Part shown: one piece after another, positions 4,685 through 61,112 of the stretch
Layout of the letters: every line of letters begins with the position of its first letter
How positions within the stretch are numbered: position 1 is the first letter of the stretch
Source of the DNA: Candidatus Moraniibacteriota bacterium
GTDB taxonomy: Bacteria > Patescibacteriota > Minisyncoccia > Moranbacterales > GWC2-37-73
Direction of reading: 5' to 3'
Length of the DNA: 64,000 nt
Assembly (NCBI GenBank): GCA_003507445.1
Contig: DNVR01000019.1
Coordinates: forward strand, 206,132 to 270,131
Position numbers and translations under genes: made by a program
Notes under the pieces: generated by a model
Told to the model about the DNA's origin: nothing
Databases searched by the model: none
The model's input: the letters and a program-made list of their open reading frames with translations, nothing else

Positions 4685-4882
4685 ATGACAAGTGAAAATG
4701 AAAATATTTTTGTGGAAGACATAATTGCAGAGGCGGAAAAGTCTTCCGGTGATATTCAAGATGGTGTGGTAGATAAACTTCAGTCTTTATTGAAAGATGA
4801 ATTTTGTTCAGAAGAATCAAGCAATGCAACTATCACACAAATTGCAAAGAATCTTATTGAAGAGCAAGTTAAAGAACTATAA
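4685..4882 (+). CDS. small acidic hypothetical protein, upstream partner of Rad50-like ATPase
   Basis: 65-aa ORF (inner ATG of 4616..4882 ORF, past the overlap with the upstream gene); stop 4 nt before the ATPase ATG at 4887; no SD seen. Confidence 0.35.
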   Translation: MTSENENIFVEDIIAEAEKSSGDIQDGVVDKLQSLLKDEFCSEESSNATITQIAKNLIEEQVKEL

Positions 4883-4886
4883 AAGA

Positions 4887-7223
4887 ATGAAAATCAATAA
4901 AATTAAAATTGCATGGTTTCGTGGAGCATCTGATCCTGTCGAAATGGAACTGAATTCCAAATCACTTGTTATTTATGGCGAAAATGGAGCAGGGAAATCA
5001 TCATTTGTTGATTCGATCGAATATATAATAAACAACGGCAGAATAACACACCTTGCGCATGAACATAGTGGACGAAGGCAAGAAAAAGCTATTGTAAATA
5101 CTCATACACCTGGCAGTCAAAAAGGAGAAATAAAAGTTACGTTAGATGATAATTCTGAAGTCTTGGTTGAAATACAGCGCAATGGCGCTTTTTCTATTTC
5201 ACCAGATAACTCAGAAATATCAAAATGGAATTATCGTCGAACAGTTCTCAGACAAAATGAACTTGCTGATTTTATCGCTCATACAAAAGGCGATAAATAT
5301 TCTGCATTGTTGCCCTTGCTTGGATTGAGCTACTTGGAAGTTGCAGCAGAAAATCTTAGAAAATTAGAAAATTCGATTCAATCGCAAACTAGTCTTTTAG
5401 TGAAGAGGGAGGAAATTAGAAAAATAGAAGAAAAGAGACGGCTAGCTTTTGGAGATTTAGATAGAGCTGGTATTGAAAAGGAGGCAAAAGTTTTATTTAA
5501 AAAATACTGCAGTGAAAAAGAGGTTCCAGAAGATATCGATGATGTTGTTCTGGAAGCAAGTTCATCTCTGAATGTATTAATTGGAAAATTAGCAGATGAT
5601 CAAAAAAAATATACTACTCAATTAGAAATTTCTAGCTTTGAAATAAAAAAGCAAGTGGAGGACATTAGAATTAGTGCCTCTAAACTTGCAGAATACACAG
5701 TCCCTTTGATTATCGAAAAGCTTAATGTCTTAAAAACAGCTTCTGTGTTTGTTAAAAAAATAGAAGGGGAATCATTGATTGACTGTCCTGCATGTGGGCA
5801 ATCCATCTCTCCATCCGACTTCTCGTCCCATGTTGAAACAGAAGAATTGAGATTAAAGGAGGCTTCTGAAAATTTGGAATTGCATAAGTCCAACATAGGA
5901 AAACTTTGTGATAATTTGCAAAATTTAAAAAGGGCATGTGCTAAGGATGAGGTAAAAGATTGGAAGGATAAATGTAGTCATATCTATATTGATTATGTTG
6001 AGTCCCTTAATATTGATAATGTTCGTTTCGCTTGCACGGAAGAAATTCTTGCGGAAATTGATGAAAAAATAATTCCAATTTTGGAATCTGCAAAATTAGC
6101 CAGCGGAACAGTTCCTTCTGAGGTGAGGGAATTACTAACTGATCAAGAAAAATTAAAAACTATTAATGAAATTATTAAAGGGGACGCATTGAGGAAGTAT
6201 GTTTTAAAAATAGAAAATCTTGCTAAATTTATAAATTCTATTCAAAAGATATATAGAGAGCGGATCCGTTCGCAGTCATCGGCTGTTATTGCTGTTATTT
6301 CTGCAGATATTGCAAGAATGTGGGGTATTCTGCATCCTAATGAGAAGATTGAAAATGTTCATTTATATTTTCCAGAAAATGTGGATAAGGCTATCGAGAT
6401 TGGATTAAAGTTTTATGGTGTAGATCAGGAATCCCCGCGTTTAACTTTATCAGAAGGACACAGAAATAGTCTTGGTTTGTGCATTTTTCTATCAATGGTA
6501 AAGCGTGATATAAGTGCTGATTGTCCTGTTTTTCTTGATGATGTTGTTGTAAGTTTTGACCGTAATCATCGTGGAATGGTTGCGAACTTACTTGAAAGTG
6601 AATTTGATGGTAAGCAAATTATTCTTCTGACACATGATCGCGAGTGGTATATAGAATTAAAACATCAATTGTCAGCTCAAAATTGGGAGTTTAAGGCGCT
6701 GATGCCATGGGAAAGTCCTGATATTGGAATAAGATTTTCCTCAAAGCAGTATGCATTTGATGATGCTAGATTTTTTCTAAGTGGAAATCCAGATTCAGCT
6801 GGCAATACTGCACGCAAGATAATGGACACTCAAATTGCTATATTGAGCGAGCCTCTAAAAATTAGTCTTCCATATTTACATCGCGAACGAAATGATCACA
6901 GAACTGCTCATGATTTTCTTCCGAAGATTATTGCTCTTAGTCCAACGTCATTTTATATCAAAGAAGACGGGGTAAATTATATACCTTTTATAGCAGCGAT
7001 AGATGTTTTTAAAAAGGCAGATCGCCTTATTTTGGCTTGGGCAAATCGGGCATCGCATAGTTTTGATTTAGCTCAAAATGAAGCTACTGAACTTATAGAC
7101 ACTTGCGAAAGTGCATTATCTCAATTCGTTTGTTCTAATTGTGGAAAGGATGTTACGCGTCTTGATGATAAAAGTGCAAAATTTCTTCAATGTGCATGTG
7201 GAAATTTAAAATGGAAATATTAA
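4887..7223 (+). CDS. Rad50/SMC/RloC-like ABC ATPase with coiled-coil CxxC hook-like motif and C-terminal zinc ribbon (candidate defense ATPase)
   Basis: start taken at MKINKIKIAWF (ATG 4887) after the upstream stop; Walker A GENGAGKSS; long coiled-coil insert containing CPACGQS; signature-like LSEGHRNSLGL; Walker B/D-loop VFLDDVVVSFD; H-loop LLTHDREW; ~200-aa C-terminal extension ending CSNCGK...CACGN. Confidence 0.7.
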   Translation: MKINKIKIAWFRGASDPVEMELNSKSLVIYGENGAGKSSFVDSIEYIINNGRITHLAHEHSGRRQEKAIVNTHTPGSQKGEIKVTLDDNSEVLVEIQRNGAFSISPDNSEISKWNYRRTVLRQNELADFIAHTKGDKYSALLPLLGLSYLEVAAENLRKLENSIQSQTSLLVKREEIRKIEEKRRLAFGDLDRAGIEKEAKVLFKKYCSEKEVPEDIDDVVLEASSSLNVLIGKLADDQKKYTTQLEISSFEIKKQVEDIRISASKLAEYTVPLIIEKLNVLKTASVFVKKIEGESLIDCPACGQSISPSDFSSHVETEELRLKEASENLELHKSNIGKLCDNLQNLKRACAKDEVKDWKDKCSHIYIDYVESLNIDNVRFACTEEILAEIDEKIIPILESAKLASGTVPSEVRELLTDQEKLKTINEIIKGDALRKYVLKIENLAKFINSIQKIYRERIRSQSSAVIAVISADIARMWGILHPNEKIENVHLYFPENVDKAIEIGLKFYGVDQESPRLTLSEGHRNSLGLCIFLSMVKRDISADCPVFLDDVVVSFDRNHRGMVANLLESEFDGKQIILLTHDREWYIELKHQLSAQNWEFKALMPWESPDIGIRFSSKQYAFDDARFFLSGNPDSAGNTARKIMDTQIAILSEPLKISLPYLHRERNDHRTAHDFLPKIIALSPTSFYIKEDGVNYIPFIAAIDVFKKADRLILAWANRASHSFDLAQNEATELIDTCESALSQFVCSNCGKDVTRLDDKSAKFLQCACGNLKWKY

Positions 7224-7396: not shown

Positions 7397-8059
7397 ATGA
7401 ACAAACAAGAAATTATAAACAATACTGCAAAATATGCACGTGAAACGCTAGAGGGTGAAACTTCTGGTCACGACTGGTGGCACGTCTATCGTGTTTGGAA
7501 GATGGCACAGAACATAGGACAAAAAGAAAACGCCGACATGTTTGTGGTTGAACTGGCTGCACTTCTTCATGACATTGCTGATTATAAAATGCATAGTGGT
7601 GACGACACGGTCGGGTCAGGGGTTGCAAGAGAGTGGCTCGAAAAGCAAGGAGTTGATGATGAAACTATTTTCCATGTTTGTGAAATTATAAAAGAAGCAT
7701 CATTTAAGGGTGAAAAAGTTGAATCAAAAATAAATACTGTTGAGGGAAAAGTTGTGCAAGACGCAGATCGCTTGGATGCTATCGGCGCGATTGGTATAGC
7801 TAGAGGATTCATGTTTGCGGGAAATAAAAGTTTACCCATGTATGATCCAGATATAAAACCATTGGAGATACATGACTTCGAGGTATATAAAAATATAAAA
7901 AGACCAACATACACACAAATAAATCATTTCTATGAAAAACTTTTACTGCTCAAGGATTTGATGAATACTGAAAGTGGAAAAGAAATTGCACAGGGTAGGC
8001 ATGTGATCATGGAGAACTATTTGAAAGATTTTTTTAATGAGTGGGAGGGCAAGGCTTAA
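7397..8059 (+). CDS. HD-domain phosphohydrolase
   Basis: 220 aa; H...HD motif (AALLHDIADYK), downstream D (VQDADRLDAIG). Confidence 0.75.
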   Translation: MNKQEIINNTAKYARETLEGETSGHDWWHVYRVWKMAQNIGQKENADMFVVELAALLHDIADYKMHSGDDTVGSGVAREWLEKQGVDDETIFHVCEIIKEASFKGEKVESKINTVEGKVVQDADRLDAIGAIGIARGFMFAGNKSLPMYDPDIKPLEIHDFEVYKNIKRPTYTQINHFYEKLLLLKDLMNTESGKEIAQGRHVIMENYLKDFFNEWEGKA

Positions 8060-8071
8060 ATTTGCTTTTCC

Positions 8072-8160
8072 AAAGCCATTGCGCGGTTCAATCTGCTCTC
8101 AACCGACTCCCAATTTTCAAGGATATTAGTTCGAAGCGTGTACCCTAGCCCGTGCATAGA
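8072..8160. repeat. island-boundary conserved block, copy A
   Basis: AAAGCCATTGCGCGGTTCAATCTGCTCTCAAC...CCCAATTTTC...GTTCGAAGCGTGTACCCTAGC; 4 copies (8072, 9472, 10731, 11909); followed by terminator-like hairpin 8176-8205 and TTGACA box (12-nt spacer to TATGCT) 8235-8262. Confidence 0.7.
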
Positions 8161-8351
8161 TGAAGCAAGGCTCAAGTGAGCCTTGTTTTTGATAGGGGAA
8201 AATACATCTTCGAACCGAAATCTAAAAAATATTGACATTTTCCTTCGAATATGCTAAAAAGATAAGTCCACTGTGGACGAGATTTATGAATAAATCTTCA
8301 GTTCTTCGCAGTATAAATAATGGTCGAGGGACCTAAACCCAGGAGGCAAAA

Positions 8352-8918
8352 ATGGGCATAATTGATGACATTAAAGCATGGATGGGTAAACATCGGATTT
8401 TCGCAACTCTTGTTGTTCTGACACTGGTTGTCGTCCTTGGCGGCGGAACCTTCCGGGTCCTGTTTTGTACCTTTGTAGACAAGCACGAAACATGCTTCAT
8501 CTACGACAGAATTTCCGGTCAGGTAGAAATTCCGGATCGAACAGGCTACATCGTCCGCGCGCCAATCATTTATTCGGTGCACACGCTTGATACGCGTCCG
8601 TACCAGCTTTCTATCACTGCCAACATTGGGTCTCCTGGTACGTCTAGCGTTTCTTCGCGGGTTCTTAATGCCAAGCTGGTCAGGTTTAATCCCAAGGGCA
8701 TATCAACATTCATTTCCTGGCATGGACGTGACGCCGGCGACAAATTGGCAAATTTGCTGGAAATCATGAAGTGTTATGCCTTCGACAAAGAGGGAGGAAG
8801 GGATTGCCCGTTCATAACAGTTCTTAATGAAATCAATCCCAGTCAAACCCCCTCCCAGCTGGGGGATACCACTGCTTCCTCGATTACACCCAGTGTTCAT
8901 ACTGGAGCAAAGCCATGA
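8352..8918 (+). CDS. hypothetical membrane-anchored protein, paralog 1 (higher GC, ~50%)
   Basis: 188 aa; N-terminal TM helix; shares DTRP...LNAKLVRFN / KCYAFDKEGGRDCPFITVLNE blocks with downstream paralog; weak resemblance to SPFH N-terminal region. Confidence 0.5.
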   Translation: MGIIDDIKAWMGKHRIFATLVVLTLVVVLGGGTFRVLFCTFVDKHETCFIYDRISGQVEIPDRTGYIVRAPIIYSVHTLDTRPYQLSITANIGSPGTSSVSSRVLNAKLVRFNPKGISTFISWHGRDAGDKLANLLEIMKCYAFDKEGGRDCPFITVLNEINPSQTPSQLGDTTASSITPSVHTGAKP

Positions 8919-9394
8919 AGGGACTCGACGATATTCTGACGAAACATCGACTGAGGATACCAGTCATTATCTCAAGTGTCATATTCATCGTTGCACTCTT
9001 CTTCTATCTCTGTTTTCTAAACTATAATGAACCGACGGAGATTGGAATAGCTAGAAACGTGTTCTCTGGAGAAGCATGGTCACAGGAAGGTGGGGGTTGG
9101 CATCGTACGGCGCCGTGGGTGTTTGTGTCTAAGATCGACACGAGACCTATGAAAGTTGGTGTGACGACTTCCGGACACGGATTCAGTGCTAAACTTGTGC
9201 AGTTCAACACCAGGGAATGGCAGGAGTTCATCATGACAGAGGGCTTCCGCTACTGGTGGTGGGACAATCGCATCTCTTTCAACTTCGGATACAGTGAAGA
9301 ATATCGCGGGATGAAGGACATTCTGCGCGGCTACGCTTACAGCGTGAAACGCTACCCCTTCATAACAATACTGGAAGAGTATCAGACACAATAA
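8915..9394 (+). CDS. hypothetical membrane-anchored protein, paralog 2
   Basis: 159 aa; ATGA start/stop overlap with upstream gene; N-terminal TM; DTRP...SAKLVQFN / RGYAYSVKRYPFITILEE blocks paralogous to 8352 gene. Confidence 0.5.
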   Translation: MKGLDDILTKHRLRIPVIISSVIFIVALFFYLCFLNYNEPTEIGIARNVFSGEAWSQEGGGWHRTAPWVFVSKIDTRPMKVGVTTSGHGFSAKLVQFNTREWQEFIMTEGFRYWWWDNRISFNFGYSEEYRGMKDILRGYAYSVKRYPFITILEEYQTQ

Positions 9395-9471
9395 CAACAT
9401 CTTGAAAATGCAGGATTATACTGGCATGTTCATCTCACACGAGAAGAATGTGTCAGTTTTTTTATTTCATT

Positions 9472-9565
9472 AAAGTCATTACTTGCTCCAATCTTGTCTC
9501 AACAACATACCAATTTTTAAGTATATTAGTTCGAAGTGCGTACTTTAGCCCGTACAGACTAAAAT
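9472..9565. repeat. island-boundary conserved block, copy B
   Basis: AAAGTCATTACTTGCTCCAATCTTGTCTCAACAACATACCAATTTTT...GTTCGAAGTGCGTACTTTAGC; then hairpin/T-run 9565-9592. Confidence 0.7.
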
Positions 9566-9736
9566 AAGTCTTTACAGAGCCTTATTTTTTGTATAGAGAG
9601 ATTGGAATTATAACTGTGATATAATATTAATATAAATTTATCTTTAATAAGATAAACAAAAAATCGCGTGATACATTTTTGAAATTTTTGACGCAAATTA
9701 GGTTGAGCTGGTATAACAATTTTTAGAAATAAAAAT

Positions 9737-10699
9737 ATGGCAAAGAGATTATTTGAGTCGGTAGGTAATGACGTTTCCGCTATTACTAAGGGATCACAAC
9801 CGGAAGAAATAAAAAAAATTACAAAAGAAGCGGGGGAAGATTCTAGGAAATTATTATTTGAGGAGATGGAATCTGATATTGAAAAAATTGCTCCCAGTCT
9901 CGTTGATATTTGCGAAAAAGTATTAGAAGAAAAACCAGATATAATAATTTTTCTTGATAAGAGCGCACGTATTTTTGCGGGTCCAATTAAAAAGTACCTT
10001 GGAGATTCAACTGAAGGCAAAAAAGATGTTTTGCCGAAATTTTATTTTTATAATAATGATACAATTAACCAAGAAATTACCAAATATAGAGGTGGAGTTT
10101 TTTGTGCTCAGGTTGATTTAGATCTGGAAAAGAAAATTGCCGATGAATTCAAAATATTGACAGGAAAGAAAATTTTTATAGTTGATGAAAATTATTCCTC
10201 TGGAAAGGTTTTACGTATGTGGATAGAAGTTAATAATGTGCTTAATGGTCTTGATCCGGAAACACAAATTCATTTCTTTGCTTTAACAAGAGATGAACAA
10301 GAAAGAGAGTATAAAGAGAGAGTTAAATTTTTTAAAAATGAAACATTAGAAAAGGCTGTTGCTGAGCCAAATTTTAAGTTTACAATTTATGACGCCGTAA
10401 AAACAAATGTTTTTTCTAAATCTGATCATTTTCAATATGTTCAAGATCGTGACTTAAACGGTAGTGTTATATCTGAAGGAATTAACAATTCTTTGAAAAG
10501 AAGCAAAATTGGTATAAATTCTCCCTTGGATTTGTCTAGTGCGAAGACAGATGATACACATCACACAAGGACAGGTACGTATGAAGAACGTGAAGAAGCA
10601 AATACTCGTATATTTGAAGCTGTAAAAATAGCGAAACAACGAACCTATGAAAAGATGAAGGAATTTTCAAATAATAAAAAAAATATTATTGGCACCTAA
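9737..10699 (+). CDS. hypothetical protein with phosphoribosyltransferase-like fold motifs
   Basis: 320 aa; IIIFLDKSARIFAGPI and KIFIVDENYSSGKVL resemble type I PRTase PRPP-binding loop; low GC unlike neighbours. Confidence 0.4.
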   Translation: MAKRLFESVGNDVSAITKGSQPEEIKKITKEAGEDSRKLLFEEMESDIEKIAPSLVDICEKVLEEKPDIIIFLDKSARIFAGPIKKYLGDSTEGKKDVLPKFYFYNNDTINQEITKYRGGVFCAQVDLDLEKKIADEFKILTGKKIFIVDENYSSGKVLRMWIEVNNVLNGLDPETQIHFFALTRDEQEREYKERVKFFKNETLEKAVAEPNFKFTIYDAVKTNVFSKSDHFQYVQDRDLNGSVISEGINNSLKRSKIGINSPLDLSSAKTDDTHHTRTGTYEEREEANTRIFEAVKIAKQRTYEKMKEFSNNKKNIIGT

Positions 10700-10730
10700 A
10701 TTTCTAGCAGTTGAGTATTATTGTTTTATC

Positions 10731-10808
10731 AAAGCCTTTGCTCGCTCTAATCTTGCCTCAACAACATCCCAATTTTCGATGATATCGGTACCCTAGCTTG
10801 TGCATGCT
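10731..10808. repeat. island-boundary conserved block, copy C (10-nt deletion relative to others)
   Basis: AAAGCCTTTGCTCGCTCTAATCTTGCCTCAACAACATCCCAATTTTCGATGATATCGGTACCCTAGC; followed by terminator-like hairpin 10811-10838 and TTGACA box (12-nt spacer to TATGCA) 10877-10905. Confidence 0.7.
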
Positions 10809-10984
10809 AAACAGAACTCAGTTGAACTCTGTTTTTGTATAGAGAAATGAGCCTTTGAACAAAAAATTTAATAAATATTGACATTTTGCTTTGGATATGC
10901 AAATATTTGATATTCCTTAACAATTGTAAGAAGTGTTCATTTTTTTCTGATAATATCGACTATATCAAGACAAAGGAGAATGCC

Positions 10985-11623
10985 ATGGCTGACAACAGAG
11001 AGCATGATAGAGATTTCCTTAAACACGTAGAAATAATTAAGCCACCTTTTGCTGACCTTGCGAATGTGGACAGAAATGCCGGATGCAATTCGTTTCCTGC
11101 TTGGGTCGGCGAAGCATGCGTTGGACTTATCTTTGATCCTGCAAGACTTGCTCCTGATGAAAAAAGAATCTCAATTCTTCCTGATGACTGGATACTGGCA
11201 CTCATGAGACAGGATCCCCAAGATCTTTCGAACATGGCTGCGCTTTGGATGCATTACAATGTGTTTTGGGGCGGGGGAATAAGTACTTCTATTGAAAATA
11301 TTAAAATTCTTGGAAAGGGGAGATTAATGGAGAAAGGTCAGAAATGTTATCTGCCGACAATACACATGAAAATCAGGTCTGCAGGTTCGGTAAATGCTTT
11401 CATTGACGGGGATGTCTGTGACGTCGATGAGTATGAGATTATCGAACTGATAGGTCGGCGTCTTCCTCCTCTTGAATATGAACATGCTTGCTTGCCGCTT
11501 GATACTCCACGGATGGATAGAGGTATGTCCAAGTGGGAAGTGATTCACAAGGAAGGAAATATTATAGACGAGTTTGCGGTACGTGCTCTTCAGAAAATGG
11601 ATGTTGAAATTATTTGCGTTTGA
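10985..11623 (+). CDS. hypothetical protein (mid/high GC)
   Basis: 212 aa from MADNREHD (ATG 10985) preceded by AAGGAGA RBS; the longer ORF from 10886 runs through the promoter-like repeat. Confidence 0.45.
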   Translation: MADNREHDRDFLKHVEIIKPPFADLANVDRNAGCNSFPAWVGEACVGLIFDPARLAPDEKRISILPDDWILALMRQDPQDLSNMAALWMHYNVFWGGGISTSIENIKILGKGRLMEKGQKCYLPTIHMKIRSAGSVNAFIDGDVCDVDEYEIIELIGRRLPPLEYEHACLPLDTPRMDRGMSKWEVIHKEGNIIDEFAVRALQKMDVEIICV

Positions 11624-11659
11624 TAGGATTCTTAAGTCTAGAGAGAAAAGGAGGATTTT

Positions 11660-11839
11660 ATGGACAAGGTGGAAGCGGATGTGTTGCATCCCAGTCATGT
11701 CACTCGTATTTCGGACGCATCTTCTTTTGATGAGATATGCATTAATTGTGGTGCGACCGATAATCCTCTTGGACTGAGGGGTGAAGGTATATGGGGAGAG
11801 TTGGCCAAGCCATGCTCCAAAGCTGCTAAGACGCAATAA
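11660..11839 (+). CDS. small Cys-containing hypothetical protein (59 aa)
   Basis: not in ORF track (<60 aa); strong RBS AAAGGAGGA 7 nt upstream; CINCG...PCSK; followed by canonical terminator. Confidence 0.4.
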   Translation: MDKVEADVLHPSHVTRISDASSFDEICINCGATDNPLGLRGEGIWGELAKPCSKAAKTQ

Positions 11840-11864
11840 AAAGACATAACGGCAAATGCCATGG

Positions 11865-11899
11865 AGACTCGCAAATCGAAAGATTTGCGAGTCTTTTTT
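11865..11899 (+). terminator. rho-independent terminator
   Basis: gagactcgcaaatc-gaaa-gatttgcgagtc followed by TTTTTT. Confidence 0.65.
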
Positions 11900-11908
11900 C
11901 ATTTCATT

Positions 11909-61000: not shown

Positions 61001-61073
61001 GGGCACATAGCTCAGTTGGTAGAGCAGCGGCCTTTTAAGCCGATGGTCGGGGGTTCGAATCCCTCTGTGCCCA
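61001..61073 (+). tRNA. tRNA-Lys (anticodon UUU)
   Basis: manual fold: 7-bp acceptor GGGCACA/UGUGCCC, D-arm GCUC/GAGC, anticodon loop CUUUUAA, T-arm GGGGG-UUCGAAU-CCCUC, discriminator A; no encoded CCA. Confidence 0.9.
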
Positions 61074-61112
61074 CAAAAACGAAAATCCCTTTTGGGATTT
61101 TTTTGTTTTTGT
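61067..61112. repeat. 46-bp direct repeat 1 (tRNA-Lys 3' end + terminator hairpin)
   Basis: gtgcccacaaaaacgaaaatcccttttgggatttttttgtttttgt; identical copy at 61268-61313; followed by inverted tRNA fragment gcacagagggattcgaac (61113-61130). Confidence 0.7.

Follow-up and report, generated by a model that had tools for sequence, protein, structure and literature searches.

We found a two-gene unit at positions 4685 to 7223 of a 64,000-nucleotide (nt) stretch of DNA from a Candidatus Moraniibacteriota bacterium (contig DNVR01000019.1; the whole stretch is called the window here). This pair is most likely an uncharacterized anti-phage or anti-plasmid system built like RloC. The larger gene encodes an ABC ATPase that ends in a domain with a predicted HEPN fold and a zinc ribbon, and the smaller gene, directly upstream, encodes an acidic protein. 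An initial annotation, made from the sequence alone, had proposed a Rad50/RloC-like single-polypeptide ATPase distinct from housekeeping SbcC/RecN, and a candidate defense module. The first proposal is borne out by the predicted fold, by the lack of a conserved sbcD/mre11 gene and by the C-terminal domain, which is present in all full-length homologs; orthology to SbcC or RecN with conserved synteny was not found. The second agrees with the two-gene organization and with the other loci of the pair, most of which appear to be defense islands or mobile elements.

When 5.8 billion proteins were searched with the large protein, 564 relatives were obtained. The best 120 of these cover 97-100% of the query at 45-58% identity and are 759-855 amino acids long, mostly 771-793. 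These close relatives are called the window family here. Searching plasmids with tblastn led to two further clades with the same layout. The Aliiroseovarius/Brucella plasmid clade (799 and 798 amino acids) shares about 27% identity with the window protein across the C-terminal lobe of the head and the C-terminal domain, and its best match among the PADLOC defense profiles is LmuB (3.2e-27). The Hymenobacter/Fibrella/Sphingopyxis/Treponema clade, called Hymenobacter-type below, holds 54 proteins of about 770-800 amino acids with about 22% identity over the ATPase.

The larger gene encodes an SMC/Rad50-type ATPase with a putative zinc hook

We found that the 778-amino acid protein is an SMC/Rad50-type ABC ATPase with all motifs intact and its head split by a helical insertion. 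The motifs fall into two blocks, and the insertion that separates them spans about 335 residues, is mostly helical and carries LIDCPACGQSIS midway. In an alignment of 56 homologs with 45-59% identity to the window protein, the ATPase residues K37, Q123, S522, G524, D551, D552 and H583 are invariant, as are the hook residues C300, P301, C303 and G304 and all four cysteines of the C-terminal ribbon. At the hook position the two distant clades have CPFC and CPLC, and both keep the ribbon cysteines. Since these residues are invariant in 56 homologs, the ATPase, hook and ribbon features are not due to chance. The CPACG at the apex of the arm is a putative zinc hook of the kind seen in Rad50 and SbcC. 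A head divided by a long coiled coil with CPACG at its middle had already been described in the initial annotation, which put at 779 amino acids the length that the reading frame gives as 778.

The AlphaFold2 (AF2) model of the full protein had a mean pLDDT (predicted local distance difference test) of 82 and a pTM (predicted template modeling score) of 0.62. It runs from the head N-lobe through rising helices, a short CPACG hairpin and falling helices to the head C-lobe, a four-helix bundle and a beta-rich zinc-ribbon region. When the model was compared with the PDB using Foldseek, it matched the heads of SMC, cohesin, condensin, Rad50, Lamassu LmuB (9hqx_B) and JetC proteins with E-values down to 2.6e-12.

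Profile searches gave a similar picture. Pfam SMC_N matched the protein at 1.5e-18 (67.5 bits; cutoff 40). The best defense-profile match was PADLOC LmuB PDLC03859 (E 1.4e-25); these hidden Markov models come without a curated cutoff. Residues 1-608 aligned to positions 3-596 of the 611 in this profile, and the match stopped exactly where the C-terminal domain starts. PDC-S06, HEC-01, PtuA, GajA, AriA and MADS were rejected as family assignments because their models match generic head motifs only.

The Walker B motif has an aspartate after its aspartate instead of the usual catalytic glutamate, and this substitution is invariant in the window family and in both distant clades. Such an hhhhDD motif has also been reported for long Lamassu LmuB, and it may mean slow ATP hydrolysis.

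The C-terminal domain is predicted to have a HEPN fold

Behind the ATPase head lies a C-terminal extension of about 173 residues (606-778), somewhat shorter than the approximately 200 of the initial annotation; the spacer between its CSNCGK and CACGN motifs, formerly given as 17 residues, is 14. In the AF2 model the first part of this extension is an up-down bundle of four helices in which an insert separates helix 2 from helix 3, which is the HEPN topology. Taken together with the sequence comparisons below, the model indicates that the C-terminal domain has a HEPN fold and so belongs to the superfamily of the RloC and PrrC nuclease domains. The initial annotation had called for a comparison with PrrC and RloC; the agreement is at the level of superfamily fold, and the Pfam and PADLOC profile searches detected no sequence similarity to their nuclease domain.

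Direct database matches to the domain were few and weak. A Foldseek search of the C-terminal model against the PDB gave no significant match, and the top structure, SsR10 (E 0.23), belongs to the PaREP1-type HEPN families. Single-sequence and profile searches of the domain against the PDB returned chance-level matches only, and the isolated domain had no match in PADLOC at E<=10. Weak Pfam matches to DUF4145, below threshold, were obtained for 5 of 27 family members (best E 0.0011). DUF4145 is a HEPN family, and in one member inspected the match spans the end of helix 3 and helix 4.

We then considered the conserved residues. Among the 56 aligned homologs the polar residues R643, D647, N669, D670, R672, N720, H724 and E732 of the C-terminal domain are invariant. 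The canonical HEPN motif, Rx4-6H, opens helix 4, and its arginine is followed by a polar residue (PMC3710099). The C-terminal domain of the Hymenobacter-type clade contains i-R-N-x-v-G-a-H-f, in which R, N, G and H are conserved in at least 90%; by the published definition this is a canonical motif, its arginine being followed by asparagine. A profile-profile alignment of the C-terminal domains of the window family and the Hymenobacter-type clade gave a probability of 91% (E 1.1e-6) and placed H724 opposite the motif histidine. The canonical arginine and asparagine align with W718 and A/G719 of the window family.

The window family has also acquired an invariant N669-D670-x-R672 at the N-terminus of helix 2, with H675 conserved in 95%, and the Hymenobacter-type clade is without it. 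In the Aliiroseovarius/Brucella clade N669, R672, N720, S723 and H724 are retained and position 670 is acidic, but R721 and H675 are not retained. Some HEPN families of the PaREP1 type retain the histidine, lack the arginine and have another conserved basic residue instead (PMC3710099). By analogy, R672 is a candidate for the substitute basic residue in the window family. Since the N-termini of helix 2 and helix 4 share one end of an up-down bundle, a composite polar site formed by R672 and H724 is plausible in the modeled fold.

An exhaustive search of 1.84 billion representative proteins with a profile of the C-terminal domain found 196 clusters only. All of them are either proteins of about 770-795 amino acids that carry the domain C-terminally or evident fragments. 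This suggests that, at the sensitivity of a profile search, the domain is specific to this ABC ATPase architecture.

The ATPase gene is preceded by a small acidic partner gene

A small acidic open reading frame (ORF) had been noted 4 nt upstream of the large one, and we confirmed both ORFs and the gap between them (4883-4886). Whether the small ORF co-occurs with its neighbor across homologs, a check raised in the initial annotation, could be assessed at the 65 loci that have a complete large gene and enough upstream DNA. At all 65 a homologous small ORF is present on the + strand, with a stop codon that either overlaps the start of the ATPase gene or lies next to it. The commonest overlaps are 4 and 11 nt, and the window has its 4-nt gap at this point. 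In a leave-one-out test, a profile of the small protein matched just one of the 1046 six-frame segments of the window, and this was the small ORF (E 1e-10).

The small protein of the window has an isoelectric point (pI) of 4.05 with 16 D+E against 5 K+R; its family has a median pI of 5.1 and lengths of 61-80 amino acids at the loci. Family members share the hydrophobic pattern W-I-x6-A ... P-x-V ... L-L-x-G-x-L-x-E ... L-x3-A-x2-L-L. The periodic spacing of hydrophobic residues in the alignment suggests three helices. No significant match was found in Pfam, in PADLOC or, with the profile, among PDB sequences. A word-indexed search of 5.8 billion proteins recovered homologs of 54-83 amino acids that were all stand-alone and hypothetical, with no fusions or names. 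One of them, labeled Candidatus Moranbacteria, is identical to the window protein and so places the window in a CPR (Candidate Phyla Radiation) genome. In both distant clades an acidic ORF of 61-80 amino acids takes the same overlapping position, with no detectable sequence similarity to that of the window family. Judged from its conservation and gene order, the small ORF is a genuine, obligatory and translationally coupled partner of the ATPase in bacteria, CPR lineages and archaea.

Scans for promoters and terminators around the gene pair gave scores no better than those of shuffled sequence, and base composition at the locus gave no foreign-island signal. The features of both genes are collected in Table 1.

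Table 1. Features of the two-gene unit, in window coordinates.
Feature	Positions	Strand	Residues	Details
Small partner gene	4685-4882	+		ATG 4685, TAA 4880-4882; 65 amino acids
ATPase gene	4887-7223	+		ATG 4887, TAA 7221-7223; 778 amino acids; SMC/Rad50-like, putative zinc hook, predicted HEPN-fold domain, zinc ribbon
ATPase head, N-terminal lobe	4887-5327	+	1-147	From AF2 model and alignment
Walker A	4977-5000	+	31-38	GENGAGKS
Q-loop	5247-5255	+	121-123	LRQ
Ascending helical arm of insertion	5328-5774	+	148-296	AF2 helices 148-291
Zinc-hook-like apex	5775-5810	+	297-308	LIDCPACGQSIS; C300, P301, C303, G304 invariant
Descending helical arm	5811-6332	+	309-482	AF2 helices 309-482, the last a single 70-residue helix
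ATPase head, C-terminal lobe	6333-6701	+	483-605	
Signature	6447-6467	+	521-527	LSEGHRN
Walker B	6525-6542	+	547-552	PVFLDD, hhhhDD type
D-loop	6552-6560	+	556-558	SFD
H-loop	6627-6641	+	581-585	LTHDR
Predicted HEPN-fold four-helix bundle	6702-7121	+	606-745	Helices 635-657, 674-688, 702-719, 726-745; beta-hairpin 689-700
Part of conserved polar cluster	6801-6827	+		GNTARKIMD
Part of conserved polar cluster	6885-6917	+		ERNDHRTAHDF
Part of conserved polar cluster	7038-7067	+		WANRASHSFD
Four-Cys zinc ribbon	7122-7220	+	746-778	C749-x2-C752-x16-C769-x-C771; short strands in AF2 model

The gene pair is rare and scattered

A pattern scan of 185,579 species genomes, one genome per species, yielded 93 confirmed matches, which is a lower bound because the scan was limited by its pattern. 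The bacterial matches are scattered over Patescibacteria, Alphaproteobacteria, Dehalococcoidia, Acidobacteriota, Planctomycetota, Nitrospirota, Gemmatimonadota, Cyanobacteria, Spirochaetota and Bacteroidota, and the archaeal ones over Bathyarchaeia, Methanophagales and Thermoplasmatota. Identity is 45-47% among CPR bacteria, Proteobacteria and archaea, and 46-47% between CPR and archaeal copies. This scatter and the identity between CPR and archaeal copies argue for horizontal transfer, and the comparison indicates that the gene pair is rare and horizontally spread. No homolog was found in the phage genome collection searched.

One protein (P0280; 470 amino acids), whose label names the plant Tanacetum cinerariifolium, is 70% identical to the Hymenobacter sister-family ATPase. 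Its most likely source is bacterial DNA that contaminated the plant assembly.

Genomic neighborhoods

The flanking ORFs of about 80 loci were compared by all-against-all BLAST, and we found no conserved third gene; the largest neighbor cluster covers 7 loci. Across the same loci there is no conserved SbcD/Mre11 partner, and Metallophos is not among the frequent neighbor families. An LmuA gene is present at none of the loci compared. In targeted BLAST searches SNF2, Mtase, ResIII, RmuC, DUF2779 and AIPR were each found in 0-4 of the loci searched, and they were therefore rejected as core components. The MazG-like, HIT, histidine phosphatase and HD genes listed as flanks in the initial annotation are all there by Pfam label (MazG, HIT, His_Phos_1, HD). 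They were rejected as parts of the module because they do not recur in the approximately 80 loci. Since they are not conserved elsewhere we regard them as bystanders, best read as unrelated genes of a compact, co-directional CPR genome.

At the annotated loci the setting varies. The pair adjoins a GmrSD-type enzyme at one locus, stands beside BREX genes and insertion sequence (IS) elements at another, and lies among Tn3, IS110, Fic, ParB and relaxase genes at a third. Elsewhere it is downstream of SNF2, N6_N4 methylase and ResIII genes, a type III restriction-modification (R-M) system with SNF2, or beside SIR2-HerA and RmuC. On plasmids, in the distant clade, it adjoins Tn7-like genes or repABC. 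At one locus (L085 5576-16206) the pair has a phage-integrase gene on either side and is accompanied by a 74-amino acid ScpB-like ORF and a second, unrelated SMC_N/AAA_15 ATPase that is split into 426 and 135 amino acids; this looks like a small integrative island with two SMC-like systems. One further locus and the window itself look unremarkable in gene context.

In the Hymenobacter-type clade, in Sphingopyxis and Treponema, the pair is found inside operons of the order SNF2, pair, (AIPR), methylase, ResIII, with AIPR in Sphingopyxis, an arrangement reminiscent of prrC within its type I R-M locus. Operons with an SNF2 helicase, an N6_N4 methyltransferase and a ResIII helicase/restriction subunit were recorded at L094 4964-16450, L095 4946-16647 and L003/L087. 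R-M linkage in the main family is occasional, at few of 80 loci. The recurrent embedding of the pair in SNF2/methylase/ResIII operons suggests, by analogy with PrrC, a role as a back-up to restriction.

At three loci that are close relatives of one another (L086 8252-9754; L088 8123-9750; L090 6711-8027) the gene immediately before the pair belongs to the RmuC family, and at three genome loci (L015, L039, L079) an RmuC-family gene is found within 8 kb. RmuC may be a linked component specific to a sub-clade or a neighboring RmuC-based defense gene.

Other features of the window were recorded as well. Just downstream of the HD gene, the region 8001-11900 begins with a G+C content of 0.413 (8001-10000), against about 0.35 around it. 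It includes ORFs 8352-8918, 8915-9394, 9737-10699 and 10886-11623, which have no Pfam match on record, and it could be a separate foreign or lineage-specific block. Over the whole window (1-64000) the + strand carries nearly all ORFs of at least 180 amino acids, and every 2-kb bin has a positive GC skew. The single tRNA is Lys-TTT (61001-61074).

Proposed mechanism and rival explanations

The best explanation, to which we give somewhat better than even credence, is a self-contained, mobile two-gene ABC-HEPN defense module, in which a sensor gated by the hook and ATP is coupled to a HEPN RNase and a small partner. The analysis shows the gene structure, the conserved motifs, the predicted fold, the strict pairing of the two genes, their patchy distribution and their mobile or defense settings. 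DNA sensing, RNase activity, an RNA target, a role for the small protein and a defense phenotype are what we infer for the pair, as follows. The ATPase would dimerize through its zinc hook and through ATP-dependent engagement of its heads. It would monitor DNA in the manner of Rad50, LmuB and RloC, for example free DNA ends, or intermediates of replication, from a phage or plasmid that has entered the cell. HEPN RNases normally act as dimers. The ATPase cycle would control the HEPN domains directly behind each head, probably by pairing two of them, and once activated these would cut cellular RNA (tRNA, rRNA or mRNA), so that growth of the infected cell halts as in abortive infection. Translational coupling would supply the small acidic partner in fixed proportion. 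This partner may silence the complex like an antitoxin, or it may serve as an adaptor for the head or the coiled coil, encoded where LmuC precedes LmuB and the SbcD C-terminal domain precedes SbcC.

A more far-reaching version of this proposal is possible, and we hold it tentatively, thinking it rather more apt to fail than to succeed. Here the pair would be a hitherto undescribed stand-alone immune system that links Lamassu and RloC, in which an LmuB-type DNA-end sensor would have captured a HEPN RNase in cis. The arginine of the window clade would have moved from helix 4 to the N-D-x-R on helix 2, a new small acidic subunit would act as the gate, and the system would occur in CPR, archaea and ordinary bacteria.

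Several points weigh against a defense module with an active RNase. No Pfam HEPN model scores above threshold for the C-terminal domain. The canonical Rx4-6H is replaced in the window family by W718-[A/G]-N720-[R/K]-x-S-H724, and because of this replacement, the main uncertainty of the proposal, the domain could be a non-catalytic binder. As to context, the neighbors in the window are ordinary small hydrolases with no defense gene nearby, and the defense association comes from about a dozen annotated loci.

The loss of the canonical HEPN arginine in the window family would fit a different reading, in which the pair is a fused minimal Lamassu-type system acting on DNA. The two proteins would then be equivalents of LmuB and LmuC, the C-terminal bundle and ribbon would be an LmuA-like docking or DNA-binding module instead of an RNase, and the effector would act in trans, for example as the adjacent R-M or SNF2 enzymes. 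LmuB is the best PADLOC match over the full profile, the hhhhDD Walker B and single CxxC are those of long Lamassu, and LmuC is encoded just before LmuB (PMC12663957). Furthermore, the C-terminal domains of short LmuA are helical bundles, a Lamassu clade without an effector domain exists, and the pair lies inside SNF2/Mtase/ResIII operons at several loci. However, LmuA is encoded at none of the loci and R-M linkage occurs at few of 80 only. The small protein has no PADLOC LmuC match, is acidic and is 2-3 times shorter than LmuC. The sister family retains the canonical HEPN RNxxxxH, and the main family retains an invariant histidine and polar cluster, as expected of an enzyme. We consider this reading unlikely.

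We regard as similarly improbable that the pair is a toxin-antitoxin or addiction module, with the HEPN-ATPase as toxin and the small acidic protein as labile antitoxin, whose main role is to stabilize plasmids, transposons and islands and not to sense phage. The order of the genes is that of type II toxin-antitoxin pairs, small acidic gene first with its stop overlapping the start of the large gene, and HEPN toxins with small partners are common (PMC3710099). Members are also found on plasmids beside repABC, and beside Tn7-like and IS elements. Yet a fully conserved 600-residue SMC-type ATPase with a zinc hook exceeds the sensing needs of a simple toxin, the small protein lacks the DNA-binding domain typical of autoregulating antitoxins, and many copies are chromosomal, in R-M or BREX loci. 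Toxin-antitoxin and defense roles of the pair are not mutually exclusive.

That the ATPase is a housekeeping or accessory protein for DNA repair or for chromosome or plasmid maintenance, an SMC-like analog of SbcC, RecN or RecF with a nucleic acid-binding C-terminal domain, seems very unlikely. Generic SMC_N, RecF and Rad50 profiles match it, homologs are annotated as RecF or SbcC ATPases, and the window gene stands in a co-directional run of ordinary metabolic genes. But the family is sparse and patchy (at least 93 matches in 185,579 species genomes; 196 clusters in 1.84 billion), and identity of at least 45% across domains of life points to recent transfer. Neither SbcD/Mre11 nor another repair partner is conserved, and the neighborhoods are variable and often mobile or defense-related.

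If the function proposed for the favored defense module is correct, the pair is a compact two-gene ABC-HEPN system in which a single chain joins the DNA-sensing scaffold of Lamassu or Rad50 to an effector that acts on RNA. The pair would then be a natural experiment on how SMC-like sensors signal to the effector they carry. It would also provide a new family of small partner proteins, and a HEPN domain whose active site is rearranged and which would be useful for the study of HEPN catalysis. A candidate immune system would also be added to Patescibacteria (CPR) and several archaeal lineages, in which few defense systems have been tested.

Comparison with known systems

RloC (restriction-linked ORF C) is an anticodon nuclease that excises the wobble nucleotide; its C-terminal HEPN nuclease is under the control of a zinc hook and of an ATPase that depends on DNA (PMC3458546). 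The window protein resembles it as a single chain of about 800 amino acids, with a coiled-coil/CxxC hook insert in the ABC head and a predicted C-terminal domain of the HEPN superfamily (PMC3458546, PMC3710099). Both are occasionally linked to R-M systems, and the logic we propose is the same, a DNA-responsive ATPase and hook that would gate a nuclease. In contrast, similarity of the nuclease domains is undetectable at the sequence level when compared through the Pfam AAA_13 and PADLOC PrrC profiles: the best AAA_13 stretch is profile positions 487-584 of 713, and the PrrC model aligns to the ATPase part only. The window ATPase scores much better against LmuB. Further differences are the C-terminal zinc ribbon of the window family, the obligatory small partner encoded upstream, and the non-canonical motif of the main family, W-[AG]-N-[RK]-x-S-H. 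The RloC-type match of the initial annotation stands for the architecture; by sequence the ATPase is closest to Lamassu LmuB, not RloC.

Long Lamassu LmuB has an hhhhDD Walker B and a single CxxC, and the LmuC gene is located just before LmuB, as the SbcD C-terminal domain is before SbcC (PMC12663957). The window module shares the Walker B type, the single CxxC hook and a shortened coiled coil with LmuB, which is also its best ATPase profile match. A small gene directly upstream of the SMC-like gene, at the LmuC position, and an occurrence in defense islands are further points of likeness. The differences lie in the other components. There is no separate LmuA effector, and the window family carries its candidate effector as a C-terminal fusion on the ATPase. 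The small partner (61-80 amino acids) is acidic and unrelated in sequence to LmuC, with no PADLOC or Pfam match. PMC12663957 names nine classes of LmuA effector, and none of them is a HEPN fold.

Compared with Rad50-Mre11 and SbcCD, the window protein has the same SMC-type head, an antiparallel-type helical arm and a CP-x-CG zinc-hook motif, and its model matches Rad50 heads in Foldseek. However, the window family has no Mre11/SbcD partner and much shorter arms, carries the C-terminal HEPN-type domain and zinc ribbon, and has a sparse, mobile distribution. The small upstream gene whose stop is coupled to the start of the large gene is, as an organization, that of type II toxin-antitoxin pairs.

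ABC-HEPN proteins are a recognized theme (PMC3710099). The PrrC, APECO1_4465 and ERFG_01251 groups of that study likewise have an N-terminal ABC ATPase fused to HEPN, and their genes are in or beside R-M systems. PrrC is without a coiled-coil or hook insertion, ERFG_01251 proteins have an extra N-terminal HEPN/Toprim-NTD1 domain, and the HEPN part of the window family has no sequence-level match to these groups. A literature search found no publication that describes the window family, and an earlier description is possible, for example in the ABC ATPase classification of Krishnan et al. 2020. The family is apparently a further, unnamed group within the ABC-HEPN theme. On the sequence comparisons made here, the module is RloC-like in its architecture and LmuB-like in the ancestry of its ATPase.

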